Origin: Candidatus Limnocylindrales bacterium
GTDB lineage: Bacteria; Chloroflexota; Limnocylindria; Limnocylindrales; CSP1-4
Length of the DNA stretch: 53,909 nt
NCBI GenBank assembly: GCA_035701885.1
Contig: DASSRG010000143.1
Location: forward strand, 1 to 53,909
Reading direction: 5' to 3'
The notes beneath the pieces are model-generated. The model had not been told where the DNA came from, searched no databases, and worked only from the letters and a program-made list of their open reading frames with translations. A program made the translations under genes and the position numbers. Positions 323 through 38,540 of the stretch are shown here, piece by piece. The stretch's first letter is position 1. Every line of letters starts with the position of its first letter.

Positions 323-1864
323 CTATGCCGGTGCGGTCGCGGGTGCCGCGCCCGCGGGCTCGATCGAGTGGCGCTCGAGCCGCGTCACGGCCTTCGCGAG
401 CGCCTCGACATCCGGGTAGTTCATGACGATCAGCGGTGCGGACAGCCGCCCGTCCGAGACGACGTACGCGAGGTCGGCCGCCTCGAACACCTCCGGCACC
501 TCCGTGCAGTAGATGATCACGGCGTGGCCGTCCGACGCGTACTGGCGCATCAGCCGGTAGATCTCGCGCTTGGCACCGATGTCGACGCCACGCGTGGGCT
601 CCTCCAGGACGAGGACCTCCGGCCGGTTCACGATCGCCGCGGCGATGGCCACCTTCTGCTGGTTGCCGCCGGACAACGAGCGGATCGGCAGGTGGACCGA
701 GGCCGCCTTGACGCGGAACCGATCGCGCAGGTCGTGGGCGATCTCGAGCATCCGGCGGCGACGAAGCGCGCCGCCACGCGTGATCTCGCGGTTCAGCCGC
801 GCGACCATGTTGTCGCCGATCGACAGGTTGGAGAACAGGCTTGCCTGACGGTCCGCCGCGACGAGCCCCGTGGACGACAGGACCGTGCGGCTGCCGGTCC
901 GCCCGCCGATCTCGATGGTGCCCGTGCCCTTCTCGAACCCCGCGATCGACCGGACGAGCTCGCGCGCGCCCGACCCCTCCACGCCGACCATCGCGACGAT
1001 CTCGCCCACGCGCACGTGGAGCTCGATGTCCGAGAATTCGCCACCGGCGTGCGTCCAGCCTCGCAGCCGCAACGCCGTCGCCGCGTCGTCGCCCACCCGG
1101 ACCGTGATCTGCTCCTCCGGCTCGCGCGCAGCCTGGCCGGTGACCAGCCCCGCCGCGATGCCCTCCTGGGTCAGCGCGTCGCCCTCGAGGACGGTCGTGC
1201 ACAGCCCGTCGAGGATGAGCGCGACTCGATCGGCGTGCTCGGCGAGCTCCGCGATCCGGTGCGAGACGAGCAGCACCACGCGGCCCGCATCGGCGAGCAG
1301 GTGCATCCGCCGGAAGAGGTCCTGCGACTCCTCCTGGGTCAGCGCCGAGTTCGGCTCGTCGAACAGGAACACGGACGCGTCGCGGGCGAGTGCCCGTCCG
1401 ATCTCGACCCGCTGGTGGACGGCGAGCGGCACGTCGGCGAGCGGCTTGTCCGCGACGCCGAGGATCGCGAGGTCGGCGAGCAGCCGCTCCTCGTCGTCGG
1501 TGAGCCCTCGGGTCAGCGCCCGAGTCCCTTCCCGCCCGACCATCAGGTTCTCGGCCACCGTGAGGTTCGGGAAGAGCTGCGGCTCCTGGTGTACGACCGC
1601 CACCCGGTGGAAGTCCGTGGCGGTGTCCCAGGCCGCGTCGTCGAGCAGGATCTCGCCCTCGTTCGCGGCCGTCTCGCCGGCGAGGATCTTGATCAGCGTG
1701 CTCTTGCCTGCGCCGTTGGGGCCCGCGATGCCGAGGATCTCGCCCCGGCGGCCCTCGAGGTCGAGGCCGTCGAGCGCCCGCGTGTCGCCGTACCACTTGC
1801 GCAGGCCCCGGATCCGCAGGCCGCTCCGTGCGGTGGCCGCGACCTCGGCGAGGGCGCCGCTCAC
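323..1864 (-). CDS. sugar ABC transporter ATP-binding protein (CUT2 type, two fused NBDs)
   Basis: Start taken as GTG 1864 inside ORF 323..2599, because the upstream 245 codons are Arg/Gly/Pro-rich junk. GTGA overlap with the permease stop. Walker A GPNGAGKST; second-half signature LSGGNQQK and Walker B LVLEEPTRGVD. Confidence 0.9.
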   Translation of the reverse strand: MSGALAEVAATARSGLRIRGLRKWYGDTRALDGLDLEGRRGEILGIAGPNGAGKSTLIKILAGETAANEGEILLDDAAWDTATDFHRVAVVHQEPQLFPNLTVAENLMVGREGTRALTRGLTDDEERLLADLAILGVADKPLADVPLAVHQRVEIGRALARDASVFLFDEPNSALTQEESQDLFRRMHLLADAGRVVLLVSHRIAELAEHADRVALILDGLCTTVLEGDALTQEGIAAGLVTGQAAREPEEQITVRVGDDAATALRLRGWTHAGGEFSDIELHVRVGEIVAMVGVEGSGARELVRSIAGFEKGTGTIEIGGRTGSRTVLSSTGLVAADRQASLFSNLSIGDNMVARLNREITRGGALRRRRMLEIAHDLRDRFRVKAASVHLPIRSLSGGNQQKVAIAAAIVNRPEVLVLEEPTRGVDIGAKREIYRLMRQYASDGHAVIIYCTEVPEVFEAADLAYVVSDGRLSAPLIVMNYPDVEALAKAVTRLERHSIEPAGAAPATAPA

Positions 1865-2904
1865 CGGCGGAGCCTCTGGGTGAGCCGGTCGAGGACGACG
1901 GCGGCGATCGTGACCGCGCCGGACACGAAGTTCGACAGGTAGGCGCCGGCCGACAGCAGCGCGAGGCCGTTCGCGATCAGCGCGAGCAGCAGCGCGCCGC
2001 TGAGAGTCCCGATCGCAGACCCCCGACCGCCCGACAGGCTCGCCCCGCCGATGATCACCGCGGCGAACACCGGGAACGTGAGGCTGACGCCCGCGTTGGG
2101 CTGGACCGAGCCGATGAACGCGAAGTCGAGCGTCGCCGCGAGCGTCGCCAGGATCGAGCACAGCATGAACGCGGCGAACTTGTACTTCGTGATCGGGAGG
2201 CGGGCGAGCTCCGCCGCGACCGGGTTGCCGCCGATCGCCTTGAGCCGGAACCCGAACAGCGACCGGCTGAGCAGGAACCCGATCACGAGGGCGACACCCG
2301 CCATCCACAGCGCCTGCATGGGGACGCCGAACGGCAGCTGCTGGTTGGACAGGCCGAAGAACCAGGCGATCTCGGCCGGCGGCACGACCTTGCCCACCGG
2401 CGGGTACGAGGGGTTGATCGTGGCCGTGTTCGAGACGAGCAGCGTCGTGCCGAACACGAGCTGCCCCACGCCGAGCGTCACGATGAACGATGGGATCTTG
2501 ACCAGCGTCACCAGCAGCGCGTTGACCGCCCCGATTCCGGCCGCCGCGAGGAACGCGAGGATGATGGCGGCCCAGATCGGCCACCCCCACACGACCCACG
2601 CGACCCCGATCAGGATCGACGCGAGGCCGTACACGTACCCGAACGAGAGGTCGATCTCGCCGACGACGATCACCAGCGTCAGCCCGAGCGCGACGATCGC
2701 GATCGTGCTCATCGAGCGCATGACGCCGAGCGCGTTGGTGATCGTGAAGAAGGTGTTCGGCTTCGCGATCACCGTGAACACGATGATCACGACGGCGATC
2801 GCGATGACGATGCCACCCACCCGGAGGCCCGCCGCGAGCGCGCGGTTGGACATGGCGGCGGGTGACGCCGCACCCTGGCGGACCGCGCCCTGGTTGTCGG
2901 TCAT
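1861..2904 (-). CDS. ABC transporter permease (RbsC/AraH-like, CUT2)
   Basis: 347 aa with about 10 hydrophobic segments. Motifs VGEIDLSFGYVYG and IIGGASLSGGRGSAIG are shared with the three other permeases in the window. AAGGAG lies upstream of ATG 2904. Confidence 0.9.
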   Translation of the reverse strand: MTDNQGAVRQGAASPAAMSNRALAAGLRVGGIVIAIAVVIIVFTVIAKPNTFFTITNALGVMRSMSTIAIVALGLTLVIVVGEIDLSFGYVYGLASILIGVAWVVWGWPIWAAIILAFLAAAGIGAVNALLVTLVKIPSFIVTLGVGQLVFGTTLLVSNTATINPSYPPVGKVVPPAEIAWFFGLSNQQLPFGVPMQALWMAGVALVIGFLLSRSLFGFRLKAIGGNPVAAELARLPITKYKFAAFMLCSILATLAATLDFAFIGSVQPNAGVSLTFPVFAAVIIGGASLSGGRGSAIGTLSGALLLALIANGLALLSAGAYLSNFVSGAVTIAAVVLDRLTQRLRR

Positions 2905-2977
2905 CCCGGGAATGCTCCTTGTTCGGGGGATGGGGACGGTCGGGCGCGCCGGTGGTGGCTCGCCCCTCGCGCGGTCG

Positions 2978-3730
2978 TCAGGACGACATGATGTAGCCGC
3001 CGTCGACGTAGATCGTCTGACCGGTCAGGTAGGCCGCCGTGTCGGACAGCATCCACGCGACGACGCCGGCCATCTCCTCCGGCGGCGCGGACCGCTTGAG
3101 CGGGACGAGCTTCAGCCGCTCCTGGCTCAGCTCCTCGTAGGTCTGGCCGCGCAGCGCCGATGCCTCGCGCAGCACGGTCTCCTGCATCGGGGTGTCGGTG
3201 ATGCCGGGTGAGATCGCGTTGACGCGGACCTTGCGCGGCGCGTGCGCGACCGCGAAGGTGCGCGTGGCGCCCTGGATCGCGGTCTTCGTCGCGCTGTACG
3301 GGGCGGTCTCCAGCGTGTAGGCCCAGCGGGCCGACGGCGAGGAGAAGTTGACGATCGCGCCACCCTCGACGAGGCGCCGGCCGACGTCCCGGCACAGGAA
3401 CCAGGTGGACTCGAGGTTGACGGCGAAGATCCGCCGGAAGTCCGCCTGCGTGACGTCCCAGATCGGCTTGAGGCCGAGGATCCCGGCCGCGTTGACGAGG
3501 TAGTGCGTCGGGTTGGCCTCGGCAAGCGCGACGACCGGCGCCCGCCCGGACTCGTCGCTGAGGTCCGTGGCGAGGATCTCCGCCCTGGCCGCCCGCGCCT
3601 CCTCGAGGCCGGCCTCGTTGACGTCGACCGCGGTCACGATCGCCCCCTCGCCCAGGAGGTGGAGCGCGACCGCCTTGCCGATGCCGCTCGACGCACCCGT
3701 GACGATGGCGCGCCGTCCTTCGAAGCTCAT
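2978..3730 (-). CDS. SDR family oxidoreductase
   Basis: ATG 3730 inside ORF 2978..4831. Cofactor motif VTGASSGIGKA and catalytic YSATK. ATGA overlap with the upstream Cys-rich gene. Closest in-window paralogue is 9349..10119 (shared LVNAAGIL..KPIWDV). Confidence 0.9.
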   Translation of the reverse strand: MSFEGRRAIVTGASSGIGKAVALHLLGEGAIVTAVDVNEAGLEEARAARAEILATDLSDESGRAPVVALAEANPTHYLVNAAGILGLKPIWDVTQADFRRIFAVNLESTWFLCRDVGRRLVEGGAIVNFSSPSARWAYTLETAPYSATKTAIQGATRTFAVAHAPRKVRVNAISPGITDTPMQETVLREASALRGQTYEELSQERLKLVPLKRSAPPEEMAGVVAWMLSDTAAYLTGQTIYVDGGYIMSS

Positions 3731-4848
3731 GCCGATGCCTCTCCCTGCTGCTGGGCCCCGGGCTGGATGACCGGGAGCTGCGGCTTCGTCCGCCCGATCC
3801 GCTCGTACTCCCGCTCCGGGATCGCCTCGAGCGTCTTCCAGACGGTCCACTGGCACTTGCGGTTGGTCGCCTCGTCGTCGGGGCCGCGCCACAGCGGCGG
3901 GTCGACGGTCCGGACGGGGTGGCCCCAGCGTTCGGCGGGGATCGTCGACAGCGCGATGTTGCAGTGCGCGCAGTAATGGCAGACGCCGGTCTCGCCCCAC
4001 GTCCACGGGTAGGCGTTCTCGAGGACGCCGAAGTCGTACGGGGCGAGGACGCGCGAGCCGGTTCCCTCGATCGGGTCGCCGCGCAGGATCCGGCCGCCGG
4101 AGCCGCACGGGTCGAACCGGATCAGCCAGCGGTCCTCCTCCTCGACCAGCTCGATGTCGCCGCGGCGGCCCGGCCCCACGAGGTGGCCGCGCATCGCCTC
4201 GAGGCTGATGTACAGGTTCCGGTCCAGCGTGTCCTCGTACGGGGTCTTGTTGGTGTCGAACACCATGTACCGCTCCTGGAGGTACGGCTCCATGATCGCG
4301 CGGTAGCAGGTCTCGAGGGCGGGCTCGCCGAAGCGCTTCACGACGTAGGCGAGGATCCCGGCCATCAGGTCCGCGGAGCGGTCGTGGAGGCGGCGCCAGT
4401 CCTCGGTGATGCCGTCGAGCTCCGCCCGGGCGGCCGCGACGGGCAGGTCGTAGCTCCGGATCCCGTTCGCGAGGCGGCCGGCGCGGAGACCCAGCGCGTC
4501 CCAGCGCGCCTCGCGGTCGAGCGGCTGACCGTCCGGGTACGCGAGGAGCCGGCGCAGCCGATCGACCTCCGCGTCGAGCTCCTCGTCCGTGACCCCCTGT
4601 GCGCGCAGCCAGTCGACGAAGCCCGCCGTCCACACCTTGTAGATGACGTAGACGACCTTCGCCTCCTCCATGAAGTAGTCGACGAGCTGGGCGGCGTTCT
4701 CCCGCCGCCCGGCGGCCAGCCCGAAGTCGTCGCCCGCGGCCTCGAGCTCCTCCTCGATCCTGGTGACCGTCGAGATCGCCTGGTCGGCCCAGTCGCCGCT
4801 CCGGACGCGCTTGCCGATCGCGTCCGACCACTCGAGATGCGTTGCCAT
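3727..4848 (-). CDS. conserved hypothetical Cys-rich protein (373 aa), family not recognised
   Basis: ATG 4848 (MATHLEWSD) preceded by GAGGAG; the upstream part of ORF 3727..5082 is junk. Strong GC3 bias. Paralogue at 28059..29174 shares the blocks EAMRGHLVGP, RFDPCGSG, GVC.YCAHC, DPP, KCQW and GRTKP. Confidence 0.8.
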   Translation of the reverse strand: MATHLEWSDAIGKRVRSGDWADQAISTVTRIEEELEAAGDDFGLAAGRRENAAQLVDYFMEEAKVVYVIYKVWTAGFVDWLRAQGVTDEELDAEVDRLRRLLAYPDGQPLDREARWDALGLRAGRLANGIRSYDLPVAAARAELDGITEDWRRLHDRSADLMAGILAYVVKRFGEPALETCYRAIMEPYLQERYMVFDTNKTPYEDTLDRNLYISLEAMRGHLVGPGRRGDIELVEEEDRWLIRFDPCGSGGRILRGDPIEGTGSRVLAPYDFGVLENAYPWTWGETGVCHYCAHCNIALSTIPAERWGHPVRTVDPPLWRGPDDEATNRKCQWTVWKTLEAIPEREYERIGRTKPQLPVIQPGAQQQGEASA

Positions 4849-4931
4849 CCGGACTCCTCGGGCTTCGGGAACGACGTCGGGCCGGGGCGAGGCGTGTCCT
4901 CGCACCCGGCCCGAGCGCAGTTCGCGACGGG

Positions 4932-6083
4932 TCAGCTGCCGGCGATCTTCATGAACTCCTCGCGTGCCGCGGCGGAGTTCTCCTTGGTCACCGGCTTCAG
5001 CTCCTGGCTGTTCGGCAGGACCGTGCCGTCCTTGAGCAGGTTCGCGCAGGCCAGGGCGCCGAAGCCCGCCTGCTCGCCCCACTGCTGGTCGAGCGCGACG
5101 ATCTGGGTGCCGGCGTCGATCGCGTCGAGCTGCCCGACCGAGAGGTTCCAGCCGAACGCGTACATCTTGCCGGTGTTGCCGGAGTCCGCGATCGCGCGGG
5201 CGGCGTGCTCGGCGGAGATGTCGACGTTCTCGATGACCTGGACGTCGGGGTTGCCCTGGATGAACGCCTTGTACGCGTCGTACGCGCTGGCCGGGTCGTA
5301 GGTCACGTTGAGCGCGGTGCTGGCGTCGTTGACGAACTTCGCGTCCGGGATCGCCTCCTTGATCCCGTCGATGAACCCCTGCATCCGGCCCTGGGCCCAG
5401 TTCTGGGTCGGGTCGCCGCCGGAGACCGCGAAGGTCTTGAAGTCGAGGTTGTTCTTCTTCATGTAGTCGACGATGATCCCGGCCGCCTGGCGGCCCTCCT
5501 TCGTCGAGATCTGGGTGAAGTTCGTGAACTCGTTGCCGTTCGACTCCACGCCGACGGTGAACACCGGGATGCCCGTCGCCATGATGTCGTTCACGATCTT
5601 GGTGAACGCGTCGGTGCCGGTCGACTGGACCGAGAGGCAGTCGATCTGGTCGGCCTTGAACAGCGCGTCGATCTGCGCGATCTGCTCGTTGATGTCCTGG
5701 ACCGCGGACGACGGCGCGATCGCCTGGCCGTTCATCGGCAGGATCTTCTGCGCCTCGGGCAGCGTCCGCTCGTAGCCTGCCTTGTACTGCGGCGAGAACA
5801 GCGGGATGGCCGTGGAGCCGTACGAGAAGACGTAGTTGATGGGCTCGCCCTTGGCGAGCTTGTCGGCGACGCGCGGGTTCAGCGTGAACGTCGAACCGTC
5901 CTTCAGGGTGCCGGTGTACGGCAGGCCCTCCGCGGCCGGCGAGCCGCTCGCGCTCGACTCCGACGGGGCGGCGCTGGGCGCCGCGCTGGGGGCGGTCGTG
6001 GCCGGCGCCGCGCCGCCGCAGGCCGCCACGAGCAACGAGGCCGCAGCGGCCAGGGTGACCGCCCCTCGAGAACCGATCCGCAT
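4932..6083 (-). CDS. sugar ABC transporter substrate-binding lipoprotein
   Basis: ATG 6083 (MRIGSRGAVTLAAAASLLVAACGG) with GAGGAGG SD. Signal peptide plus lipobox LVAAC, followed by an Ala/Pro/Ser linker. The body resembles a type I periplasmic sugar-binding protein. Confidence 0.85.
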   Translation of the reverse strand: MRIGSRGAVTLAAAASLLVAACGGAAPATTAPSAAPSAAPSESSASGSPAAEGLPYTGTLKDGSTFTLNPRVADKLAKGEPINYVFSYGSTAIPLFSPQYKAGYERTLPEAQKILPMNGQAIAPSSAVQDINEQIAQIDALFKADQIDCLSVQSTGTDAFTKIVNDIMATGIPVFTVGVESNGNEFTNFTQISTKEGRQAAGIIVDYMKKNNLDFKTFAVSGGDPTQNWAQGRMQGFIDGIKEAIPDAKFVNDASTALNVTYDPASAYDAYKAFIQGNPDVQVIENVDISAEHAARAIADSGNTGKMYAFGWNLSVGQLDAIDAGTQIVALDQQWGEQAGFGALACANLLKDGTVLPNSQELKPVTKENSAAAREEFMKIAGS

Positions 6084-6131
6084 CGTGTGCTCCTCCTCAC
6101 GAACCCCGGTGCCGGTGACGGCCGGGGCGTC

Positions 6132-6161
6132 AGTATCGTTTCCAGCGAGAGTCGATGTCAA
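6132..6161 (-). promoter_or_regulatory. candidate promoter of the SBP / Cys-rich / SDR / permease / ATPase operon
   Basis: The minus strand reads TTGACA (6161..6156), an 18-nt spacer, then GATACT (6137..6132), about 45 nt upstream of ATG 6083. The spacer contains CGCTGGAAACG. Confidence 0.35.
6134..6147. promoter_or_regulatory. LacI-type operator-like site (TATCGTTTCCAGCG)
   Basis: This 14-mer is identical to 16027..16040. It lies in the divergent LacI/ABC intergenic region. A second related site, TTACTGGAAA, sits at 6164..6173. Confidence 0.45.
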
Positions 6162-6315
6162 CGTTACTGGAAAGGATTGCGTCCTTCACGCGAACCAGTA
6201 CCGCACGCCGTCCCCGCGGCCTTGATTTCTGGACGAATCGGGGCCAACACGCTGTGGTACCGTCCGCTGAAATCGTTGCTGGAACGGCGCGATGACATGC
6301 CCGGGAGGGAGGCAG

Positions 6316-7362
6316 ATGCCCGACGACGTGGGGGGAGCCGTCCGCCGACGGCGGGCGAGCATGCGCGAGGTCGCGGAGCTCGCGGACGTCGCCATCTCAT
6401 CGGTGTCACGGGTCCTGTCGGGACATCCCGACGTGAGCTCCGAGATGAAGGAGCGGGTCCTCGACGCAGTCGCGCAGCTCGAGTACGAGCCCGACTTCCT
6501 CGCCCAGAGCCTCCGCCGCGGTCAGACGCTGTCGGTCGGGTTCGTCCTGGCCGACATCTCGAACCCGCTGATGGCGGATATCGTCCTGGGGGCGGAGGCG
6601 GAGATGCGGGGGGCCGGCTACTCGCTCCTGCTCATGAACTCCGAGAACGACCCGGCACTCGACGCCGCCCACATCCGGTTCTTCCAGAGCCGCCGGGTGG
6701 ACGGGATGATCCTGTCCCTCGCCAGCGAGACGCACTCGCCCACCGTGGAGGCGATCGAGGCCGCCAACGTCCCGGTCGCCCTGGTCGATCGCGAGCTGCC
6801 CGACGGCATCGGGGCGAGCGCGGTGTTCAACGACCACACCGCGGGCATGGAGGCGGCCGTGCGCCACCTGATCGGCCTGGGGCATCGCCGGATCGCGCTG
6901 ATCACCGGGTCCGTCGAGCAGCTCCCCGGCCGGCAGCGGATCAAGGGCATGCAGAACGTGATCGCCGAGACCAACGGCGCCGTCGAGGGGGTGTATCTCC
7001 CCGGCTCGTTCTCGCGTGAGCACGGGGAGGTCGCCGCCCGGTCGCTGCTCGCCGGCCCGAACCGGCCCACCGCGATCATCGCCGGCGGGAACCAGCTGCT
7101 CATCGGCTGCCTGCGCGTCCTGAACGAATCGGGGCTCCGGGTCCCCGACGACGTCTCGCTCGTCACCTGCGACGACGTGCCGCTGAGCGAGCTCTACCGG
7201 CCGCCGATCGCGACGATCACCCGCGACACGGTGGGGCTCGGCCGGACGGCCGCGGACCTGCTGCTGCGACGGCTCGGCGAGCACCCCGGTCCGCCCGAGA
7301 CCGTCGTGCTCGCGACGGTGTTCACGCCGCGCGGGTCGGTGGCGGCGCCCCAGCGCGCCTGA
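6316..7362 (+). CDS. LacI family transcriptional regulator
   Basis: N-terminal HTH MREVAELADVAISSVSRVLSG plus a sugar-binding core. ATG 6316 is preferred (GGGAGGGAGG just upstream); the ORF track start 6292 is the alternative. Divergent from the ABC operon. Confidence 0.85.
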   Translation: MPDDVGGAVRRRRASMREVAELADVAISSVSRVLSGHPDVSSEMKERVLDAVAQLEYEPDFLAQSLRRGQTLSVGFVLADISNPLMADIVLGAEAEMRGAGYSLLLMNSENDPALDAAHIRFFQSRRVDGMILSLASETHSPTVEAIEAANVPVALVDRELPDGIGASAVFNDHTAGMEAAVRHLIGLGHRRIALITGSVEQLPGRQRIKGMQNVIAETNGAVEGVYLPGSFSREHGEVAARSLLAGPNRPTAIIAGGNQLLIGCLRVLNESGLRVPDDVSLVTCDDVPLSELYRPPIATITRDTVGLGRTAADLLLRRLGEHPGPPETVVLATVFTPRGSVAAPQRA

Positions 7363-7385: not shown

Positions 7386-9338
7386 CTAGCCGGCGTCGAC
7401 CCGCGCGACCGTGTACGGCGAGAGCTCCACGCGGAGCGCGCCGTCGACCGCCGTCCGCGGCTCCGCGGGTGCAGCGCGCCACCCTGCAGGGTCGGCCGTC
7501 GCGCGGCTCGCCGACAGCTGGTCGAGCACGCGGACGGTCGCCGATGTCCCGGGGATGCCGGCCAGGTCGACGACGACGGGTTCCGGCCGGAGGTTCGCGA
7601 CGAGCGCGTGGAGGCCATCGCCGCCGTCGACCGCGAACGCGTCCGCGGCGAGCGGCGCCGAGGATCGCGTGCGCCGGACGGCTGCACCTGCCCACTCACC
7701 GGCGTCGGCGAGGACGTGGTACAGCGGGAATGCCTGGCCGGGCACGGACGGGAACGCCGGATGCGGTGACCCATCGTCACGCTCGACGATCCCGCGCCAG
7801 CCGCTCGTCTCGTACCAGGTGACGCTCGACGCGCCGGCCTGCGCCAGCCGCCCGAGGGTGGCGGCTGTCCACGCGGCCCCGAGCAGCGACGCCTGGCGGA
7901 CGTCGACCGCCGGCGGCAACCCGCCCGGCGCCTGCGGACCGGCCGGGTAGGGGCCGTTCCTGGTCGCGATCGTGACCGGGCTGACGACGATCGGGCGGCC
8001 GTCCGCGAACGTCGCCGCCATCCGGACGACCTCGGCCGCCCCGGCGACGTTCTCGACGATCGACCGATCGTCGGCGGCGTGGACCGTTGGACACAGCGAG
8101 AAGCAGACCGCGCCGATCGCCGGGTCCGTCGGGCGGTCGCGGTTGATGTCGCTGAACGCCTGGTTCGTGCCTCCCGCGAACGGCACGGGGCCGGTCACCG
8201 GCTCGAGGTGCCGGCGCACGAGGGCGACGGTGGTGCCCGGCGTGCACCCGGACATCGCGCTGTAGCCGGCGATGCGCTGATAGACGAGGACGCGCGCCAC
8301 CGCGACGGGTGTCGTGCGGAGGCGCGCCGCCAGCGCCGCGAGCGCCTCGCCATCGGCGTCGTTGGCATGGACGGCGAGCTCGAGCGGAACGCCGATCGCC
8401 TCGGCGTCGGCGACCGCGCGGTCGAGCGTGGCGAGGTCGGACGGGTCGGCCGCCACCACGTCGACACGCAGGTGTGCCGGCCGCGCCGCCGCGATCAGGG
8501 CCGCCTCACGCGCCGTGAGCCGCTCACCGTGGCTCGCCTGTCCGAGGCCGATCGCCGGCATCCGGCCCAGCCGCTCCCCCACCTCGATCCGGACGGGGCC
8601 GGGCGCCGGCGCGGGCCGGGGGGTGCCCCGAAATGAGATCGTCAGCACCTGGCGTATCCGCTGGCCGTCCCTGGACGTGAACGGGAACCCGAGCGCGAGC
8701 GGCGTCGCGTAGGACTTGAAGTTCGCATCGGCCCAGTTGCGGTGGTCCTGGAGCTCGAGCAGGTCGCCTTCGAGCGAGACGACCGCCTCCAGGCCATCCC
8801 GGACCTCGATCGCGATCTCGCGGTACGGCTCGAACATCCCCGACAGCTTCCCGTCCACGATCCGCTGCGGGTCGATCTCGTCGGGGAGTGCACCGTCGCG
8901 GCTTCGGCCCTCCGCGTCGACGATCCGATACCTGTGCCCCACGCTGCCGTCGAGCGCGTGGTGCACGTTGAAGCCGATCTTCGAGTACTCGAACACGCCG
9001 TGACAGACGGCGTCCATCTCGTATCGGATCGTCCCGTCCGCGGCCCCGTCGATCCGGCCCGTCCAGCGCAGGTCGATCGCCTCGTGCGTGTGACGGGCGG
9101 CGAACGTCACGAGGAACGCGTCGTCGTCCTCGCGCACGCTCCAGTCCGAGAACACGCCGGGGATCGTGTTCCACGGCGCGTCCCGGACCGCCATGTACAC
9201 GCGCTGGACGAGCTCGGCATCGCCGACCCGCACCGCCCGCAGGTCGGCGCCGTCGAGCTCGACGAGCACGGGGCCCGCGCGCAGGAGCCGCGGCGCGGGG
9301 GCGGCGGGGCGGCCGGTGAGGATCGTCTCGGCGTCCAT
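7386..9338 (-). CDS. conserved hypothetical protein (650 aa), function unknown
   Basis: Long ORF with protein-like composition and GC3 bias, 10 nt downstream of the SDR stop. I recognised no catalytic motif. The middle part looks alpha/beta (possibly TIM-like) and the N- and C-terminal parts look beta-rich (my impression only). Confidence 0.7.
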   Translation of the reverse strand: MDAETILTGRPAAPAPRLLRAGPVLVELDGADLRAVRVGDAELVQRVYMAVRDAPWNTIPGVFSDWSVREDDDAFLVTFAARHTHEAIDLRWTGRIDGAADGTIRYEMDAVCHGVFEYSKIGFNVHHALDGSVGHRYRIVDAEGRSRDGALPDEIDPQRIVDGKLSGMFEPYREIAIEVRDGLEAVVSLEGDLLELQDHRNWADANFKSYATPLALGFPFTSRDGQRIRQVLTISFRGTPRPAPAPGPVRIEVGERLGRMPAIGLGQASHGERLTAREAALIAAARPAHLRVDVVAADPSDLATLDRAVADAEAIGVPLELAVHANDADGEALAALAARLRTTPVAVARVLVYQRIAGYSAMSGCTPGTTVALVRRHLEPVTGPVPFAGGTNQAFSDINRDRPTDPAIGAVCFSLCPTVHAADDRSIVENVAGAAEVVRMAATFADGRPIVVSPVTIATRNGPYPAGPQAPGGLPPAVDVRQASLLGAAWTAATLGRLAQAGASSVTWYETSGWRGIVERDDGSPHPAFPSVPGQAFPLYHVLADAGEWAGAAVRRTRSSAPLAADAFAVDGGDGLHALVANLRPEPVVVDLAGIPGTSATVRVLDQLSASRATADPAGWRAAPAEPRTAVDGALRVELSPYTVARVDAG

Positions 9339-11972: not shown

Positions 11973-13118
11973 GTGAGCAAGGTCGCGACCGTCGAAGCCA
12001 TCCCGGTGTCCTACCCGGAGCCGAACGACTTCAACGCCCTGCGGCACCTGTGCCTCGTGAAGATCACCACCGACGACGGCGTCGTGGGCTGGGGCGAGTC
12101 CATCACCCAGTTCCCGGAGGCCAACTTCGCGGTCAAGGCGATCATCGAGGGCATGTCGGAGCGGGTCGTCGGCAAGGACCCGCTGGACAACGTGGCGATC
12201 TGGCACTCGCTCCGCGACCAGGCGTGGTGGTACGGCTACGGCGGCGGGATCGCCTCGTACGCGGTCGCGGCGATCGACATCGCCCTGTGGGACATCAAGG
12301 GCAAGCTGCTCAACGTGCCCGTGCTCCAGCTGCTCGGCGGCGCGGTCCACGAGCGGCTCCCGGCCGTCGCGTCGTGCCACGCGCACTACGAGGACATCGA
12401 CCGGATGGTCGAGGAGGCCCAGGAGTGGGTCGCGCCCGGGCTCCACGGCGTGAAGGTGGGCTTCGGCAAGCGGGGCAACGCGCGGCTCGGCTACGAGCAC
12501 GATCGCGACGTCGAGTACATCCGCAAGATGCGGGCGGGCCTCGGCGACGACCAGATGATCATGATCGACTGCGGCTGGAACGTGAAGTGGGACGTCACGA
12601 CCGCGGTCCGTCGGGTCCAGGCGTTCGACGAGTACAACCTCCACTGGATCGAGGAGCCGCTGGGCGCCTGGGATCCGGAGGGATACGCGAACCTCCGCTC
12701 GAAGACGACCGCGCTCATCGCGTACGGCGAGAAGGAGTGGAACCTCGACGGCTTCGAGCGCGTGCTCGGCACGGGCACGGTCGATGTCGTGGGCATCGAC
12801 CCCGGGCGCGCCGAGGGCCTGACGGGCTTCAAGCGGGCGTCCGAGCGGATCGAGTTCTACCGCCGCCAGGCGAACGCCCATTGCTGGTCGTCGGCGATCG
12901 TGACCGCCGCGAGCCACGCGATGAGCTTCAGCTCGCCGGCGTTCAAGCTCATCGAGGTCAAGCCGCTCACCAACCCGATGCAGCACGAGCTCGTCACGGA
13001 GCCGATCGCGCACGAGGACGGCTGGTTCACCCCGCCGACGAAGCCCGGCCTGGGGATCGAGGTCATCGACGAGGTCGTCGACCGCTACCGCAGCGAGAAG
13101 GTCCTCGGCAGGGCCTGA
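11973..13118 (+). CDS. enolase superfamily (mandelate racemase/muconate lactonizing enzyme-like) sugar-acid dehydratase candidate
   Basis: GTG 11973 (GGAGG upstream) inside ORF 11880..13118. Motifs AAIDIALWDIKGK, IDCGW, WIEEPL, AYGEKEW and NAHCWSS fit the metal-ligand and His-Asp layout of the MR subgroup. Paralogue at 35380..36510. Confidence 0.8.
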   Translation: MSKVATVEAIPVSYPEPNDFNALRHLCLVKITTDDGVVGWGESITQFPEANFAVKAIIEGMSERVVGKDPLDNVAIWHSLRDQAWWYGYGGGIASYAVAAIDIALWDIKGKLLNVPVLQLLGGAVHERLPAVASCHAHYEDIDRMVEEAQEWVAPGLHGVKVGFGKRGNARLGYEHDRDVEYIRKMRAGLGDDQMIMIDCGWNVKWDVTTAVRRVQAFDEYNLHWIEEPLGAWDPEGYANLRSKTTALIAYGEKEWNLDGFERVLGTGTVDVVGIDPGRAEGLTGFKRASERIEFYRRQANAHCWSSAIVTAASHAMSFSSPAFKLIEVKPLTNPMQHELVTEPIAHEDGWFTPPTKPGLGIEVIDEVVDRYRSEKVLGRA

Positions 13119-21310: not shown

Positions 21311-22336
21311 ATGGACCCGACCGCGACGCGCGAGATCGGTCACACCGGGGTCGCGGTGACCCAGCTCGGCTTCGGCGGTGCGTCGATCGGCGAGCTCAAC
21401 GCGATCATCGACGAGATCGAGGCGATCACCGCGGTCCGGACCGCGTGGGACGCCGGGATCCGGTACTTCGACACCGCACCGTGGTACGGCCGCGGGCTGT
21501 CCGAGCTGCGAACGGGCGCCGGCCTCCGCGGCAAGCCCCGCGACGAGTTCGTGCTGTCGACCAAGATCGGTCGCTGGCTCCGCGCGCCGGGCCGGCCCGA
21601 GCGGTTCGAGCGAGCCCCGTGGACGGGCGGCAACACGATGGAGGTCGTGTTCGACTACTCGTACGACGGGATCATGCGCGCGTACGAGCAGAGCCAGCTG
21701 CGGCTCGGGCTCACGCGCTACGACATGGCGGTCATCCACGACCTCGACAGCCTGTACCACGGCACCGGCGCGAAGCGCGAGTTCTACCTCGGGCAGCTGG
21801 CCGGGTCCGGCTGGCGGGCGATCCACGAGCTGCGCCAGGCGGGCCAGATCCGGGCGATCGGCGCCGGCGTCAACGAACGCGGCATGATCACCCGGTTCCT
21901 GGAGCTGCTCGACCTCGACTTCTTCCTGATCGCGATGCCCTACACCCTGCTCCACCAGGAGATCCTCGACGACGAGTTCCCGCTCGCGGCCTCGCGCGGC
22001 TGCTCGTTCGTCATCGGCGCGCCGTTCCAGAGCGGGATCCTCGCGACCGGCGCGGTGCCCGGGGCGCACTACAACTACGCGCCGGCGCCGGACGACGTCC
22101 TGGAGCGGGTCTCCCGGATCGAGGCCGTGTGCGCACGCCACGGCGTGCCGATCGCGGCGGCGGCGCTCCAGTTCCCACTCGGACACCCGAACGTCGCGTC
22201 GGTGATCCCCGGTGCCGCGAGCGCGGCCCAGTCGCGGCGCAACGTCGAGACCTTCTCGCACCCGATCCCGGCCGACCTGTGGTCGGAGCTGCGGGCGGAG
22301 GGCCTCATCCGCGAGGACGCGCCGGTGCCCGCGTGA
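21311..22336 (+). CDS. aldo/keto reductase (D-threo-aldose / L-fucose 1-dehydrogenase-like)
   Basis: DTAPWYGRGLSE and an AKR-like layout, 341 aa. From memory it resembles AKR-type aldose 1-dehydrogenases. Substrate not established. Confidence 0.7.
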   Translation: MDPTATREIGHTGVAVTQLGFGGASIGELNAIIDEIEAITAVRTAWDAGIRYFDTAPWYGRGLSELRTGAGLRGKPRDEFVLSTKIGRWLRAPGRPERFERAPWTGGNTMEVVFDYSYDGIMRAYEQSQLRLGLTRYDMAVIHDLDSLYHGTGAKREFYLGQLAGSGWRAIHELRQAGQIRAIGAGVNERGMITRFLELLDLDFFLIAMPYTLLHQEILDDEFPLAASRGCSFVIGAPFQSGILATGAVPGAHYNYAPAPDDVLERVSRIEAVCARHGVPIAAAALQFPLGHPNVASVIPGAASAAQSRRNVETFSHPIPADLWSELRAEGLIREDAPVPA

Positions 22337-22779
22337 CACGTGCGTCGCTCACCGCCGGCGACCTGGTCGGGACCTGGCGCCTGCTGTCCTGGACGTCGGC
22401 CGGCGACGACGGCGTCCAGCACCCGATGGGCAACCCGCCCGAAGGCATCCTCGTCTACACGCCGGGCGGGACGATGATCACGACGATCGGGCGCAGGGGC
22501 CGCTCCCCCATCGACGGCGGCGACATGCTCGGCGGACCGGACGAGCAGCGGCTCGAGGCGTTCACGTCGTTCATCGCCTACTCCGGAACGTTCACGGTGG
22601 AGGGCGAGGACGTCGTCCACGACGTGACGATGAGCCTGTTCCCGAACTGGGTCGGCACCCGGCAGGTCCGCCACGTGACGCTCGAGGACGACGGCCGGAC
22701 GCTCGAGCTGTCCACGGACCCGTTCGTCCTCCGCGGCCGACTGAGCGTGCAGCGGCTCCGCTGGGAGCGCGTGCCTTAG
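22333..22779 (+). CDS. lipocalin-like domain protein
   Basis: GTG 22333 (GTGA overlap with the AKR stop) inside ORF 21298..22779. LVGTWRLLSWTS...GILVYTPGGTM matches the pattern of bacterial lipocalin-like domain proteins. Confidence 0.6.
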   Translation: MTRASLTAGDLVGTWRLLSWTSAGDDGVQHPMGNPPEGILVYTPGGTMITTIGRRGRSPIDGGDMLGGPDEQRLEAFTSFIAYSGTFTVEGEDVVHDVTMSLFPNWVGTRQVRHVTLEDDGRTLELSTDPFVLRGRLSVQRLRWERVP

Positions 22780-22792
22780 CCTCGGACGGCGG

Positions 22793-24073
22793 TCACGCCT
22801 CGTCGACGTGTGGCGCGAGGACCGCGGCGCGGACGGCCTCGGGGTCGCGCGGCGTGAACGCCAGCTGCTGCGGTCGCCAGGCGCGCGAGACGAACCCCAT
22901 CGAGCGAGGCGCAGTCGCGCCCGGAGCCGGCGCCAGATCGGGGAACGCGGCGAACAGACCCACCACCGCCTCGGTGACCTCGACGCGGGCGACGTGCGAG
23001 CCCGCGCAGTGCCGGGGCCCGACGTTGAACGCGAGGTGGCCGTACATCCGCGGCCGGTTGGGCACGAACGCCGCCGCGTCGTCGCCCCAGCGGAGCGGGT
23101 CTCGGTTCGCCGCCGCGTTCACCGCGATCACCCGCTCGCCGGCGCCGATCCGCACGCCCTCGACCTCGGTATCCCGGGTGGCACGGCGGGCGCGGAGGTG
23201 GACGACCGTCGTGTGGCGGAGCGTCTCCTCCATGAACGGGTTGAGCGTGGGACAGGAGGCGGTCCAGGCCACCCGCTCGTCCGCGGGCAGCGCGAGCAGG
23301 TGGTGGACGACGTTGCACACCAGGAACGCGGTCGTCTCCGAGCCGCCCTCGAACAGGAACTTCGCGTTGTCCAGGACGTCGCGCTCGCCCCAGTCGAGGA
23401 AGCGCTCGCGACCCGCGGCCCACAGCAGCGAGATCGTGTCGTCGCGCGGGTTGTCGCGGCGGTCGCGGACGGTGTCGAGGAGCGCCGGCTCGAGCGCCTT
23501 CGACGCCTCGATCGCCGCCTGGAGCAGCGTCGGGTCCTCGCCGTACGTGTGGCGCCAGGCGAGCACGCTCTCCATCCACGTGCGCGCCTGGTCCAGCGTC
23601 TGGAGGTCCGCGGGCGGCAGGCCGAGCACCTCCGCGATCACCGATATCGGCAGCAGCCGCGCGAAGTCGGCGTACAGCTCCATCTCTCCGCGCACCGCGA
23701 GCCCGGCGAGCCGCGTCGCCACCAGCGGCCGGACGAGCCCGGGCCCGTAGGGGCGGACCGGCTCCGGACGCCAGGAGTGCGAGAGCGGCCGGTGGATCGC
23801 GTCGTGGTCGTCGCCCACGAGCGAGCGGATGTCGCGCACCCCGACGATCTGCTCGGCTCCCGGCAGCCCGGCGGTCGGCTCGGCGAACAGCTCCTCGTTT
23901 CGCTCCACGAACGTGCAGCCGGCGTGGGTCAGCACGAGCCACGCGCGCATCCCCTCGTCCCACACCACGGGGCCGGCCTCGCGCAGCCGCTCGTACAGCG
24001 GGTACGGATCGACGTCGCGATAGTCGGCCAGCGTCTCCGCAGCAGTCGGCCGGGTCGACAGGGACGTGCTCAT
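22793..24073 (-). CDS. cytochrome P450
   Basis: ATG 24073 inside ORF 22793..24628. Heme loop FNVGPRHCAGSHVAR, K-helix EETLRH and I-helix EGGSETTA. ATGA overlap with the upstream isomerase-like gene. Confidence 0.9.
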   Translation of the reverse strand: MSTSLSTRPTAAETLADYRDVDPYPLYERLREAGPVVWDEGMRAWLVLTHAGCTFVERNEELFAEPTAGLPGAEQIVGVRDIRSLVGDDHDAIHRPLSHSWRPEPVRPYGPGLVRPLVATRLAGLAVRGEMELYADFARLLPISVIAEVLGLPPADLQTLDQARTWMESVLAWRHTYGEDPTLLQAAIEASKALEPALLDTVRDRRDNPRDDTISLLWAAGRERFLDWGERDVLDNAKFLFEGGSETTAFLVCNVVHHLLALPADERVAWTASCPTLNPFMEETLRHTTVVHLRARRATRDTEVEGVRIGAGERVIAVNAAANRDPLRWGDDAAAFVPNRPRMYGHLAFNVGPRHCAGSHVARVEVTEAVVGLFAAFPDLAPAPGATAPRSMGFVSRAWRPQQLAFTPRDPEAVRAAVLAPHVDEA

Positions 24074-25497
24074 ACGATGACTGCCTCGATGCCCAGGTGG
24101 CGCGCGACCGTGGCCACGTCGCCGGAGAGGTCGCCCGGGGTCGCCGAGCTGTGATGGTTGACGCCGGCGCTCGCCCAGCGGGCCCAGGCATCCTCGACCG
24201 GGCCGTCCCGGAACCGGAACGCGCCGTTGACGGTCCCGGTCTCCGGGAACCGTCGTTCGGTGAGCTCGCCACGCGCCGCCACGAGCCGGAACCCGCCGCG
24301 GGCGTCCGGGTGCGGCGTGAACCCGACGAGCGTCGCCGGGCCGGCCGCGGGCTCGAGCACGGCGCACACCCCGCAGTGCGGGTCCTTGCCGCAGAACCAG
24401 CCGTTGCGACGGAGCCGCGGCCGCTCCCCCGGCGCGAGCCAGGCGAGGTCGTGCTCGCCGCTGTTGGCGATGACGACCTCGCCGGTCGCGTAGTCGATCG
24501 CCTCGATCTCGTGGTACACGGCCGCCCCGCCGAGCCGCTTCGTGACGAGCATCGCGACCGCCGTCAGGATGTCGCCCGTGCAGGTCCACGGCACGCCTGC
24601 CGTCGTCGACCTGCCGAGCGCCCAGCACGGCGCGATGCCGATGGGCTCGCCGAAGCGGAACTGCGGGACGTGGCAGTTGAACGCACCGGCGTCCAGCCGA
24701 TGGTCCGCGACGAGGTCCTCGAGCGCGACCGCCGCCCGGAGCGATCGCGCGAGGCTGTCGCCATCGTCGACGTCGTCCTCGAGCGTCCAGCCCGCGCGAA
24801 CCTCGGCGTCGAGCGCCGCGACGCGCGCCTCATCGACAGCTCGATACCGTTCCACGAGCTCGTCCGGCTCGATGCGGACGACCTCGATCCCCGTCCCCGC
24901 GCGCAGCTCGTCATCCGGCACGTCGACGTGGAGATAGCCGGGCAGCGGGACGCCCACCCGCCCGAGACGCGATCGGCCGATGCGCCGGGCGACGGCCGCG
25001 AGCCGGACGGCGTGCCGCACCCGCGCGACGGTCTCCGCGTCCGAGAGGCGGCCGAGCAGGAGGTCGAACGGCCGCCCCTGGCGGCCGAGGATGTTCGACA
25101 GCATCGGCGCGCCGACGGTCGCCCCCTGGGTCGTGATCCCGCCGTGGTCGAACGAGCCGTCGACGAGCCCGGTCTCGTGGGCCGCCCAGACGACGACGGG
25201 GACGCCGTCCAGCGCCTCGATCAGCGCGAGCGCGTACGCGGACGGCGCCGCCATCGTCTGGACGACCAGCAGCACGTCGATGCCCGCGTCGCGGTACCTC
25301 GGCGCGAGCGCGGCCGCCTCCTCGGTCGACGCGAAGTCGTCGACGCCGACGATCTCCAGCCCGTCACCGAGCGCCGTGGCCACCCGCCGCGCGAGGTCGA
25401 GGCGGTCGGCGCGAAACGTGGGCCCCGCCGTGTGCTCCCACAGCGTCCAGTACGGGTGGACGACGGCCACGCGCGGGCTGACCGGGGCCATCGCCAT
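24070..25497 (-). CDS. L-fucose/L-arabinose isomerase-like protein (tentative)
   Basis: 475 aa. The N-terminal alpha/beta part (VAVVHPYWTLWE ... VLLVVQTMAAPS ... VVVWAAHE) and the C-terminal part with Glu/His clusters (ANSGEHD, VNHHSS) resemble the AraA/FucI-related family as I recall it. Not verified. Confidence 0.45.
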   Translation of the reverse strand: MAMAPVSPRVAVVHPYWTLWEHTAGPTFRADRLDLARRVATALGDGLEIVGVDDFASTEEAAALAPRYRDAGIDVLLVVQTMAAPSAYALALIEALDGVPVVVWAAHETGLVDGSFDHGGITTQGATVGAPMLSNILGRQGRPFDLLLGRLSDAETVARVRHAVRLAAVARRIGRSRLGRVGVPLPGYLHVDVPDDELRAGTGIEVVRIEPDELVERYRAVDEARVAALDAEVRAGWTLEDDVDDGDSLARSLRAAVALEDLVADHRLDAGAFNCHVPQFRFGEPIGIAPCWALGRSTTAGVPWTCTGDILTAVAMLVTKRLGGAAVYHEIEAIDYATGEVVIANSGEHDLAWLAPGERPRLRRNGWFCGKDPHCGVCAVLEPAAGPATLVGFTPHPDARGGFRLVAARGELTERRFPETGTVNGAFRFRDGPVEDAWARWASAGVNHHSSATPGDLSGDVATVARHLGIEAVIV

Positions 25498-25509
25498 CAG
25501 CGGGCCGGG

Positions 25510-26157
25510 TCAGTCGTTGTGGTAGATCTCGTCCGCGACCAGCAGGTTGCCGTCCGCGTCGGTGATCGTCGTGATGATCCCCTCGAAGGCCGTCCCCCAC
25601 CGGGCGTTGACCTCGGTCTCCCCGATCTTCGCGAAGCACGTCTTCATGTCGGGGTAGAACTCGCCGTAGTAGACGACGTGGGCGCCGCGCCGGAACCCGC
25701 AGTAGTTGCGGAACCCCGTCTCCTCGAGCGCCGCGATCAGGTCCGGCCACGGGTTCGCGTGGAGCGCCTCGTAGTCGGCGGCCCGCTCCGGGTCGATGAC
25801 GAGGCTGAAGCAGCCACGCTCGAACGGCCCGTCGAGCGGCGGACCGTCGGACCGGAACACCTGGTCGTACGTCATCGCCTTGCCGTTCGCGTCGGCGGCC
25901 TCGGCGATGACGTCCCGGAAGTACCGGTTCCAGCGCTGGTTGGCCGGCTTGGGGCCGTGCGTCGCCCAGGCGGTCGCGGCGTCCGGCTCGCACTCCGCGT
26001 AGTACCAGACATCGGTCCCGCGACGGAAGCCGCTGAAGTTCCGGATCCCGGACGCCTGGATCTCGTCGACGAGCTCGGGCCAGATCTCGGCGTGCCGCTT
26101 GTCGTACTCCGCCTCGGTGCCCGGGAAGATCCGGAGATACATCAGCTGTCGTTCCAT
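25510..26157 (-). CDS. tandem (duplicated) rhamnose-mutarotase-like domain protein
   Basis: ATG 26157 inside ORF 25510..26643. Two RhaM-like repeats: MYLRIFPGTEAEYDKRHAEIWPELV... and CFSLVIDPERAADYEALHANPWPDLI... Each ends in a Y(Y)-rich strand (DVWYYAE / HVVYYGE). Confidence 0.7.
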   Translation of the reverse strand: MERQLMYLRIFPGTEAEYDKRHAEIWPELVDEIQASGIRNFSGFRRGTDVWYYAECEPDAATAWATHGPKPANQRWNRYFRDVIAEAADANGKAMTYDQVFRSDGPPLDGPFERGCFSLVIDPERAADYEALHANPWPDLIAALEETGFRNYCGFRRGAHVVYYGEFYPDMKTCFAKIGETEVNARWGTAFEGIITTITDADGNLLVADEIYHND

Positions 26158-26266
26158 CAGGCCCTCCAGGGACGGTCTCGCCAGGCGCTCGACGGGAGTC
26201 GTACGCGGATCGTAGCGTGCGGCTGCAATCGTTGCCAGCCCGCTGTGCGAGTGCCCGGCGCGCCGG

Positions 26267-27094: not shown

Positions 27095-27107
27095 CAGGGG
27101 CGCGTCC

Positions 27108-27935: not shown

Positions 27936-28058
27936 CTGGCGCCTCCTCCGTCCGCGACCCGTCTGGCGACGCGGCACCCCTGCGTGGTACGCTGCCGCAG
28001 CCGGCTGCAAACGGTACCGGTATCGTCGCCGCATCCTACACCGGGAGGAGCACGGGCA

Positions 28059-37505: not shown

Positions 37506-37536
37506 GTGAGCCCTCCTGCGAACGGCGTCGGGGACG

Positions 37537-38496: not shown

Positions 38497-38540
38497 CCCG
38501 TTCTGCAAACGATACGAACGCGCACCCCGAGGAGGTCTGC

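Follow-up and report, generated by a model that had tools for sequence, protein, structure and literature searches.

The window analyzed was positions 1 to 53,909 of contig DASSRG010000143.1 of Candidatus Limnocylindrales bacterium (GenBank assembly GCA_035701885.1), and the gene under study, at positions 3727..4848 of its minus strand, codes by translation for a 373-aa Cys-rich protein, X1. A preliminary description of the window had listed this 373-aa open reading frame without stating a strand; the frame exists, and a plus-strand reading of 3727..4848 was discarded when its translation gave no gene. X1 starts at ATG 4848..4846, and its stop codon TGA (3729..3727) overlaps the start codon ATG (3730..3728) of a downstream short-chain dehydrogenase/reductase (SDR) gene, the bases 3730..3727 reading ATGA as had been described. 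Gene calling based on GC content at third codon positions (GC3) gave a GC3 of 0.95, and X1 was placed inside a co-directional block of a densely coding region. X1 was counted as a real gene because of its ribosome-binding site (RBS), the ATGA coupling, the GC3 of 0.95 and hundreds of full-length homologues; it is a genuine, translationally coupled gene. A paralogue in the window, X2, was aligned with X1 over its whole length (38% identity, E 2e-88). The features of the X1 operon, and X2, are as follows.

3727..4848, minus strand: X1, Cys-rich protein, with a predicted N-terminal beta-hairpin, helical bundle (~27-221) and C-terminal alpha/beta Cys domain (~225-360)
4854..4859, minus strand: Shine-Dalgarno-like GAGGAG, the X1 RBS (called strong), with 5 nt spacing to the ATG, read from the sequence
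4171..4386, minus strand: conserved polar residues of the helical domain, invariant in 46 sequences and mostly kept in divergent members
4096..4119, minus strand: RFDPCGSG block, with the C248 codon at 4105..4107
3961..3987, minus strand: GVCHYCAHC block, with codons for C290 (3979..3981), C293 (3970..3972), H295 (3964..3966) and C296 (3961..3963)
3847..3858, minus strand: KCQW block, with the C332 codon at 3853..3855
2978..3730, minus strand: partner SDR, 250 aa (Pfam adh_short_C2, E 7e-50)
4932..6161, minus strand: periplasmic sugar-binding protein (SBP) upstream of X1 (Pfam Peripla_BP_4), stop TGA at 4934..4932
1861..2904, minus strand: ATP-binding cassette (ABC) permease (Pfam BPD_transp_2)
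323..1864, minus strand: ABC ATPase with two ABC_tran domains (Pfam)
6292..7362, plus strand: divergent LacI-family regulator (Pfam)
28059..29174, plus strand: X2, in-window paralogue, 371 aa, divergent from two EamA genes and convergent with the SDR gene 29273..30061

The operon is of the monosaccharide-type ABC transporter kind, and Pfam assignments bore out the earlier description of X1 as lying between the genes for binding protein and permease (minus-strand order SBP, X, SDR, permease, ATPase). All of the motifs quoted in the preliminary description were located in X1: EAMRGHLVGP at residues 217-226, RFDPCGSG at 244-251, GVCHYCAHC at 288-296, DPP at 316-318, KCQW at 331-334 and GRTKP at 352-356. 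X1 and X2 share all of these blocks and the five C-terminal Cys, as had been reported; X1 has one extra Cys, C181, outside the motif region.

Homologues of X1 and X2, here the X family, were collected by several routes. Two word-indexed searches returned 563 and 640 homologues, called 'hypothetical' and with no precomputed Pfam domain. When 1.84 billion cluster representatives were searched exhaustively with a profile, 843 clusters were recovered at E <= 1e-3 and 518 at E <= 1e-10, the 843 family clusters being defined at 50% identity. At least 369 loci were found by a scan with one genome per GTDB species; the best 80 of the 369 were all in metagenome-assembled genomes of Chloroflexota (Limnocylindria), Acidimicrobiia, Gaiellales, Solirubrobacterales and Euzebyales. 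Hosts are mainly uncultured Chloroflexota and Actinomycetota. Rhodococcus plasmids carry members too: tblastn against plasmids identified cultured hosts in Rhodococcus jostii RHA1 (pRHL3; RHA1_RS42950), R. opacus 1CP (R1CP_RS35835), R. pyridinivorans SB3094 (Y013_RS24965) and Rhodococcus sp. JS3073. A short form of ~250 aa, which is without the first ~130 residues, is frequent in metagenomes (GC 36% to 71%). Several X paralogues occur per genome, each in a separate catabolic cluster. No source consulted in cluster look-ups names a function for any member, and longer members screened for fusions showed no partner domains, save for one probable read-through into a GFO_IDH_MocA gene.

The X family is described in no database, and its predicted fold matches no solved structure. 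The preliminary description had failed to place X1 in a family, and searches of Pfam, NCBIfam and PDB and with Foldseek upheld this; no confident hidden Markov model (HMM) or structural match that explains the motifs turned up. Against Pfam-A 2025, the best E values for X1 and X2 were 0.014-0.15, all far under the gathering threshold. When 49 diverse members were scanned one by one (E <= 1), no Pfam family was matched by more than three of them, the most frequent match being B12-binding_2 (E >= 0.033), and the precomputed Pfam column was blank for all 240 listed homologues. In NCBIfam release 20 (2026), X1 had no match and X2 reached E 0.02-0.09, far below the curated cut-off. PDB sequences (2026) were not matched by phmmer with a single sequence or by a 46-sequence profile, and a 49-sequence profile (members down to 21% identity) recovered designed helical proteins only. 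General literature searches returned nothing on the X family, and no paper was found that names the Rhodococcus X locus tags or protein accessions.

An AlphaFold2 model of X1 (46-sequence alignment; pLDDT 92.3, pTM 0.90) comprised an N-terminal beta-hairpin, then a long-helix bundle (helices 44-83, 112-131, 137-173, 176-193 and 204-221), then a small alpha/beta domain bearing the Cys. Helices were placed across 27-221, in agreement with the earlier impression that the N-terminal ~200 residues are helical. In the model, C248 follows a beta-hairpin at the N-terminus of helix 250-256; C290, C293 and C296 lie in a loop and the first turn of helix 294-308; and C332 is at the start of strand 332-337, so that the predicted positions would bring the Cys ligands close together in space. 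The full model was searched with Foldseek, giving no solved structure in PDB at E < 0.09 or TM > 0.26 and no match in BFVD. The Cys domain (residues 198-362) was then modelled separately (pLDDT 87.5), because the helical part might mask a domain-level match; its best E value against PDB was 0.64. Noise matches from the two Foldseek searches were to H-NOX, designed helical proteins and GHKL/PDK. Likeness to the GHKL ATPases/PDK was rejected (Foldseek probability 0.01-0.09, TM <= 0.29), and the candidate N-box Asn, N210, is absent from subfamily 2.

Known domains were also tested singly. For ferredoxin-type 4Fe-4S sites (CxxCxxCxxxCP, Fer4), the X1 segment C290-HY-C293-AH-C296-NIAL is without Cys-Pro at +3/+4 and gave no Fer4 match. 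For radical SAM enzymes, the X1 spacing is CxxCxxC rather than CxxxCxxC, with no Radical_SAM match. CAHC stands at a helix N-terminus as in thioredoxin-like proteins, but neither Foldseek search gave a thioredoxin fold. No MR_MLE domain was found in X, the MR_MLE proteins being distinct neighbouring genes, and FAA_hydrolase (FAH) gave no Pfam match in X. The JGI label 'IscX/YfhJ' on one subfamily-2 homologue was set aside as isolated and backed by no profile.

Conservation was measured at two depths. In 46 sequences covering both subfamilies, C248, C290, C293, H295, C296 and C332 are invariant, and ~60 residues are invariant overall across two subfamilies that are 38% identical; many of these are Arg (eleven), His, Asp, Glu, Tyr and Trp. 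W151, R152, H155, D156, R157 and D160 are conserved on helix 137-173, as are E217, M219, R220 and H222 where helix 204-221 ends; these polar residues, all in the helical domain, are the probable lining of the active site. Cys were then counted in 52 full-length representatives of the 50%-identity clusters. C248 was present in 47/52, C332 in 46/52, C296 in 44/52, C293 in 43/52 and C290 in 37/52 (~70%), and H295 was kept in all but a few. In one branch, C290 is replaced by Pro, Gly, Ser or His with C293-x-H-C296 retained. Members without the canonical Cys carry replacements: C252 where C290 and C332 are lost, C251 where C248 or C293 is lost, and elsewhere C297, C317 or C329; one variant rebuilds two CxxC pairs, 248/251 and 329/332. 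By our own tally, at least four Cys of the region are retained in 44/52 representatives. Because the number of ligands stays constant while their positions shift, a four-cysteine metal site is suggested, since a single redox-active pair would behave otherwise. C248, C293, C296 and C332 are the candidate ligands to which the sequences point and, with H295, make up the constant set across representatives. The expectation of Cys conservation among homologues thus holds across hundreds of them, in a pattern that suits a metal or cluster site. The C-x2-C-x2-C triad plus remote Cys, which the preliminary description had taken as the metal-binding arrangement, is metal-like in pattern; the triad itself is not the invariant core, C290 being replaced in the divergent branch. 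CxxCxxC spacing and one ferredoxin neighbour point to an Fe-S cluster; knuckle-like variants and four ligands point to a Zn or rubredoxin-like site.

Gene neighbourhoods were compared in the clade of X1 and X2. Genes were called in 87 loci, neighbours were clustered and clusters were named by Pfam; neighbour counts were taken within six genes of X over the 78 loci with classifiable neighbours, and are as follows.

SDR: 64/78 loci
SDR or GFO_IDH_MocA: 68/78 loci
GFO_IDH_MocA: 28/78 loci
CUT2 (monosaccharide-type) ABC genes: 49/78 loci
Lactonase-type genes (Amidohydro_2, SGL, PTE, ApnL-like): 46/78 loci
E1/E2/lipoyl genes: 28/78 loci
MR_MLE dehydratases: 25/78 loci
rhaM- or MIase-type mutarotase-like genes: 20/78 loci
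Xylose-isomerase-like TIM barrels: 17/78 loci

Lactonase-type and MR_MLE genes occurred together in 10/78 loci. A co-directional SDR stood immediately before or after X in 26 cases, and the 4-bp overlap of X stop and SDR start was found in 18 loci including this window, in two phyla, Actinomycetota (L050, L053, L058, L068) and Chloroflexota. The link between X and an SDR that had been described for this operon is strong and holds across phyla. Several gene orders recurred: MIase, X, SDR, SBP, ATPase, permease, Amidohydro_2, SBP/SDR, GFO_IDH_MocA; SBP, ATPase, permease, X, Amidohydro_2; SDR, MR_MLE, SDR on one strand, and beside them X followed by SDR, GFO_IDH_MocA, xylose-isomerase-like TIM barrel, E1beta and E1alpha; and, for the X2 type, lipocalin-like, P450-like, SftI-like isomerase, double rhaM and two EamA genes divergent from X2. 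Only in this genome, L007 and L008 does X lie between SBP and permease genes, and X orthologues at 77-85% identity sit outside transporter genes. The suggestion of co-expression with sugar uptake is therefore not general, X lying elsewhere outside transporter genes or in clusters without ABC genes.

SDR pairing was also seen in distant members and outside sugar clusters: GFO_IDH_MocA, X, SDR in L087; SDR, X, then an L-arabinose-isomerase-like gene in L088; SDR, a 259-aa protein of no known kind, SDR, short X, acetoacetate-decarboxylase (ADC) family, 2-hydroxyacid dehydrogenase, RhaT and RhaM in L089; SDR and X within an acyl-CoA cluster in L094; and on Rhodococcus plasmids. On those of R. pyridinivorans and R. 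opacus the order is SDR, DUF1116, SDR, X, then two glutamine-synthetase-like (GS-like) genes, SDR and X overlapping by 4 bp in R. opacus; on both plasmids X shares its last 8 bp with the first GS-like gene. Other contexts of the wider family include Meth_synt_2 directly downstream of X (seven metagenome loci and L091), AMP-binding ligases next to short-form X (ten loci), class-III aminotransferases (six loci), CoA-transferases and thiolase. In L093, the order E1alpha, E1beta, X, aldehyde dehydrogenase has 4-bp overlaps at both X junctions; three metagenome loci (L137, L138, L164) have the order E2, E3, X; and in L090 a distant member follows a [2Fe-2S] ferredoxin (Fer2) gene. On R. jostii RHA1 pRHL3 (L175; NC_008271.1 20408..21175), short-form X stands in the order E1alpha, E1beta, E2, ADH, IS3 element, X, lpdA, SDR, AMP-ligase, the end of X and the start of lpdA overlapping. 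In a neighbour-joining tree, these contexts were clade-specific. Their common denominator is carbonyl chemistry beside NAD(P)-dependent dehydrogenases.

Our preferred reading, given a probability of roughly 0.5, is that X is a metal-binding enzyme that acts with the adjacent dehydrogenase on a keto intermediate. The data show the gene, the family with its size, the Cys pattern, the lack of known relatives and the SDR linkage; metal binding, catalysis and reaction type we infer. In the proposed mechanism, C248, C293, C296 and C332 of the small alpha/beta domain would hold a metal ion or cluster next to the helical bundle, C290 and H295 would lie beside it, and rows of invariant helix His, Asp, Glu, Arg, Tyr and Trp would face it. 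The NAD(P)-dependent SDR would oxidize a hydroxyl of the imported substrate, a sugar or sugar acid, giving a ketone, and X would then convert the reactive keto intermediate, the likeliest reaction being one in which a beta-keto or 2,4-diketo acid is cleaved at a C-C bond or decarboxylated. The dense invariant polar residues, including eleven Arg, and the many paralogues, each in its own cluster, fit a substrate-specific enzyme with an anionic substrate, and the recurrent tight coupling to an SDR suggests that X handles the product or substrate of the SDR directly or that the two form a complex.

The reaction itself can be named only tentatively. Oxidative, non-phosphorylative routes for 6-deoxyhexoses and pentoses, such as those for L-rhamnose (LRA1-6) and L-fucose, run through a mutarotase, 1-dehydrogenase, lactonase, dehydratase and 4-dehydrogenase (SDR), and end with an FAH-family hydrolase, or with an aldolase after the dehydratase. 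A terminal step in which the keto acid from the SDR undergoes C-C cleavage or decarboxylation would suit both the MR_MLE-containing and the lactonase-containing arrangements; it is favoured over dehydration or lactone opening because lactonase-type and MR_MLE genes already lie near X, and is supported by the wider contexts, which concern keto acids and ketones (ADC, CoA-transferase, ligase, thiolase, E1/E2/E3, aminotransferase). No aldolase was found in X operons, HpcH/DUF6986 genes lying in a separate, divergently transcribed group, and a single motif regular expression, rather than an HMM search, detected no FAH signature among the genes of the first 87 loci, the window included. It is a possibility, though one we hold loosely, that X is a new-fold metalloenzyme family for an as yet unassigned C-C cleavage or decarboxylation step in oxidative sugar and ketone catabolism that has spread into other carbonyl pathways (linked to E1/E2/E3, aminotransferases or Meth_synt_2); its wide distribution in abundant uncultured soil Chloroflexota and Actinomycetota belongs to that same tentative picture.

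Several observations weigh against the preferred reading. No homology or fold match backs any chemistry for X, and all functional statements derive from gene neighbourhood. The clustering of the Cys is deduced from secondary-structure positions in the model, and four-Cys ligand sites are commoner for structural or electron-transfer metals than for Lewis-acid catalytic ones. X-adjacent SDRs form no single clade in the SDR clade test, with weak enrichment only. The absence of FAH depends on that one expression. The family contexts are heterogeneous (Meth_synt_2, AMP-ligase, E1/E2/E3, GS-like), and one reaction may not suit them all. In addition, the Limnocylindria type II/III operons (mutarotase-like, X, SDR, ABC transporter, Amidohydro_2, SDR, GFO_IDH_MocA) are without a recognizable dehydratase, and X could equally be the dehydratase there.

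This last point also speaks for the reading of X as an Fe-S-dependent hydro-lyase, a sugar-acid dehydratase replacing an enolase-superfamily or IlvD/Edd enzyme, which we regard as unlikely. C-x2-C-x2-C with a remote Cys is the classical [4Fe-4S] spacing, and the ferredoxin gene ahead of one distant member would fit; with three conserved Cys an iron stays open, however, and X conserves four or five; an entire branch does without C290, and no Fe-S lyase family is matched. MR_MLE genes in 25/78 loci, among them the Acidimicrobiia SDR, MR_MLE, SDR group with a divergent X adjoining, and the two MR_MLE genes encoded in the window weaken the dehydratase that the preliminary description had put among its suggestions. 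A general rule that X simply replaces the MR_MLE dehydratase was rejected on the same co-occurrence. About as improbable is a ketol isomerase, racemase or epimerase that prepares the SDR product for thiamine-dependent E1/E2/E3 or further oxidation. Xylose-isomerase-like TIM barrels, the usual ketol isomerases, co-occur in 17/78 loci, and many X loci are without E1/E2, as against the 28/78 loci with E1, E2 or lipoyl genes, the double overlaps in L093 and the short form between E2/ADH and lpdA in RHA1 that speak for it. Among solved structures, the SDR adjacent to X1 is nearest to butanediol and diacetyl reductases, but this likeness is weak (E 8e-35, generic SDR level).

Slightly less probable still is that X is no catalyst: a redox or thiol-disulfide protein (C-A-H-C), an electron-transfer protein, or a Zn-stabilized structural or regulatory subunit that binds the dehydrogenase. 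C293-A-H-C296 at a helix N-terminus resembles the CGHC and CPHC redox motifs, the usual structural or electron-carrying role of four-Cys sites agrees with it, X adjoins Fer2 in L090 and lpdA in RHA1, and translational coupling suggests a stoichiometric complex. The ~60 invariant residues, many of them polar and outside the Cys site, go far beyond what a structural partner needs, and compensatory relocation of Cys favours metal ligation over a single redox pair; SDRs require no electron partner, and Foldseek found no thioredoxin-like fold. An accessory component of the ABC transporter, to which the gene order in the window, L007 and L008 might point, is highly improbable and is effectively refuted by comparative gene order: besides the close orthologues outside transporter genes, ~29/78 loci are without CUT2 genes near X, other members accompany RhaT or EamA transporters or belong to operons unrelated to transport, and X has no membrane segments and no signal peptide.

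The preferred reading has counterparts among described enzymes. Two are closest in function, BKACE/DUF849 and the FAH-family 2,4-diketo-3-deoxy-acid hydrolases (LRA6 and L-2,4-diketo-3-deoxyfuconate hydrolase), the latter by functional analogy only, through the cluster role proposed for X. Genes of FAH hydrolases adjoin the gene of the SDR from which the diketo acid comes, and their clusters also hold mutarotase, 1-dehydrogenase, Amidohydro_2 lactonase and enolase-type dehydratase. X and FAH proteins show no sequence or fold relationship, the FAH metal (Mg, Ca or Mn) being carboxylate-bound whereas X has a putative Cys site. BKACE/DUF849 was long only a DUF; it is Zn-dependent and cleaves beta-keto acids supplied by a neighbouring dehydrogenase, and its catabolic clusters, which differ widely, also carry CoA-transferases and ligases. 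X has the same kind of neighbourhood spectrum; BKACE, however, is a TIM barrel with His/Glu zinc ligands, and X has no DUF849 match and a helical-bundle plus Cys-domain fold that is unmatched. Ferredoxin-type [4Fe-4S] proteins and Fe-S hydro-lyases (IlvD/Edd, aconitase-like, serine dehydratase) share C-x2-C-x2-C plus a remote Cys with X, and a sugar-acid pathway role like that of the hydro-lyases is conceivable. X differs in having no fourth Cys-Pro at +3, a first triad Cys that is dispensable in one branch, and four retained Cys instead of three, with no Pfam or fold match. In zinc-ribbon and rubredoxin-like Cys4 knuckles, as in X, Cys stand at loop-to-helix and loop-to-strand junctions, and the CxxC pairs 248/251 and 329/332 rebuilt in divergent X members are of this kind; in X1, by contrast, the ligands come from three separate segments of a ~135-residue alpha/beta domain, and Foldseek gave no zinc-ribbon match.

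The novelty lies in the protein family and its fold; the catabolic-operon setting is ordinary and is no new kind of genetic system. X is a large, well-conserved orphan family with a concrete, testable hypothesis. Should X prove to be an enzyme, its catalytic scaffold would be one without a described relative, and it would fill steps left blank in how Limnocylindria, Acidimicrobiia and Gaiellales break down carbohydrates; these are groups that are common in soil and freshwater metagenomes and whose metabolism is inferred almost wholly from homology. Assignment of one member would carry over to at least 800 sequence clusters. The proteins are experimentally tractable, being small and soluble, with confident models, a candidate metal site, a co-expressible SDR and homologues in culturable Rhodococcus; RHA1 is a genetically tractable strain that carries a short-form X operon.

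Other families recurred beside X. A second unannotated family of ~258 aa (L089 1126..1905 and L006 9154..9930; 40% identical, no Pfam match on record) adjoins X in two unrelated clusters, one of L-rhamnose type with RhaT and RhaM (L089) and one between two X paralogues (L006); it may be a novel lactonase. A ~330-aa X clade always adjoins a stand-alone Meth_synt_2 gene (L096, L101, L104, L105, L107, L127, L170, L091); this partner is like the catalytic domain of MetE, which is Zn-dependent, and MR_MLE genes are often near. The R. pyridinivorans SB3094 and R. opacus 1CP plasmids (L176/L177) have a conserved core that starts with an FCD regulator before SDR, DUF1116, SDR and X, and continues after the two GS-like genes with alpha/beta hydrolase, SDR, FAD oxidoreductase and acs. 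The opposite strand upstream of it carries gamma-glutamyl hydrolase and glutaminase genes, then an APC permease gene. This cluster looks like amine or ketone degradation rather than a sugar pathway.

The window as a whole is a sugar-catabolic island, with at least five CUT2 systems, three LacI regulators, four GFO_IDH_MocA genes, many SDRs, an aldo-keto reductase, rhaM genes, one Amidohydro_2 and one ApnL-like lactonase. Further features were placed as follows.

7386..9338, minus strand: ApnL-like protein, 650 aa, beside the X1 operon; no Pfam match, full-length match to NCBIfam NF049900 (D-apionate lactonase ApnL)
11973..13118 and 35380..36510: two MR_MLE genes
22333..22779: Lipocalin_5, first of a block divergent from X2
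22793..24073: weak P450-like protein, same block
24070..25497: 475-aa protein like sulfoquinovose isomerase SftI, no Pfam match, NCBIfam E 1e-19 (below cut-off), same block
25510..26643: double rhaM-domain protein, followed by two EamA transporters, same block

The match of the ApnL-like protein to NF049900 (E 1e-68, 232 bits) is under the cut-off of 750. The same family occurs near X in L007, L008, L024, L056 and L060; the gene at 7386..9338 is probably part of the X1 regulon, and it hints at an unusual, possibly branched, sugar as the substrate of the operon. Substrate assignment through the partner SDR or SBP was dropped, as their NCBIfam and PDB matches were generic and below cut-offs. The block 22333..28034 divergent from X2 is conserved and was seen again in L009, L025, L028, L033 and L039. 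At 36615..53317 lies an operon of the type that holds X-SDR elsewhere (MIase, SBP, ATPase, permease, SBP, GFO_IDH_MocA), here without X and without its SDR, flanked by genes for a lipoyl protein, a ceramidase-like protein, HpcH/DUF6986 and MaoC. The X-SDR pair is found inside another ABC operon, 323..6161, and therefore seems to travel as a module of two genes. A gene for a Rieske [2Fe-2S] protein, whose partners lie beyond the window, is located at the end of the window (53327..53680, minus strand).

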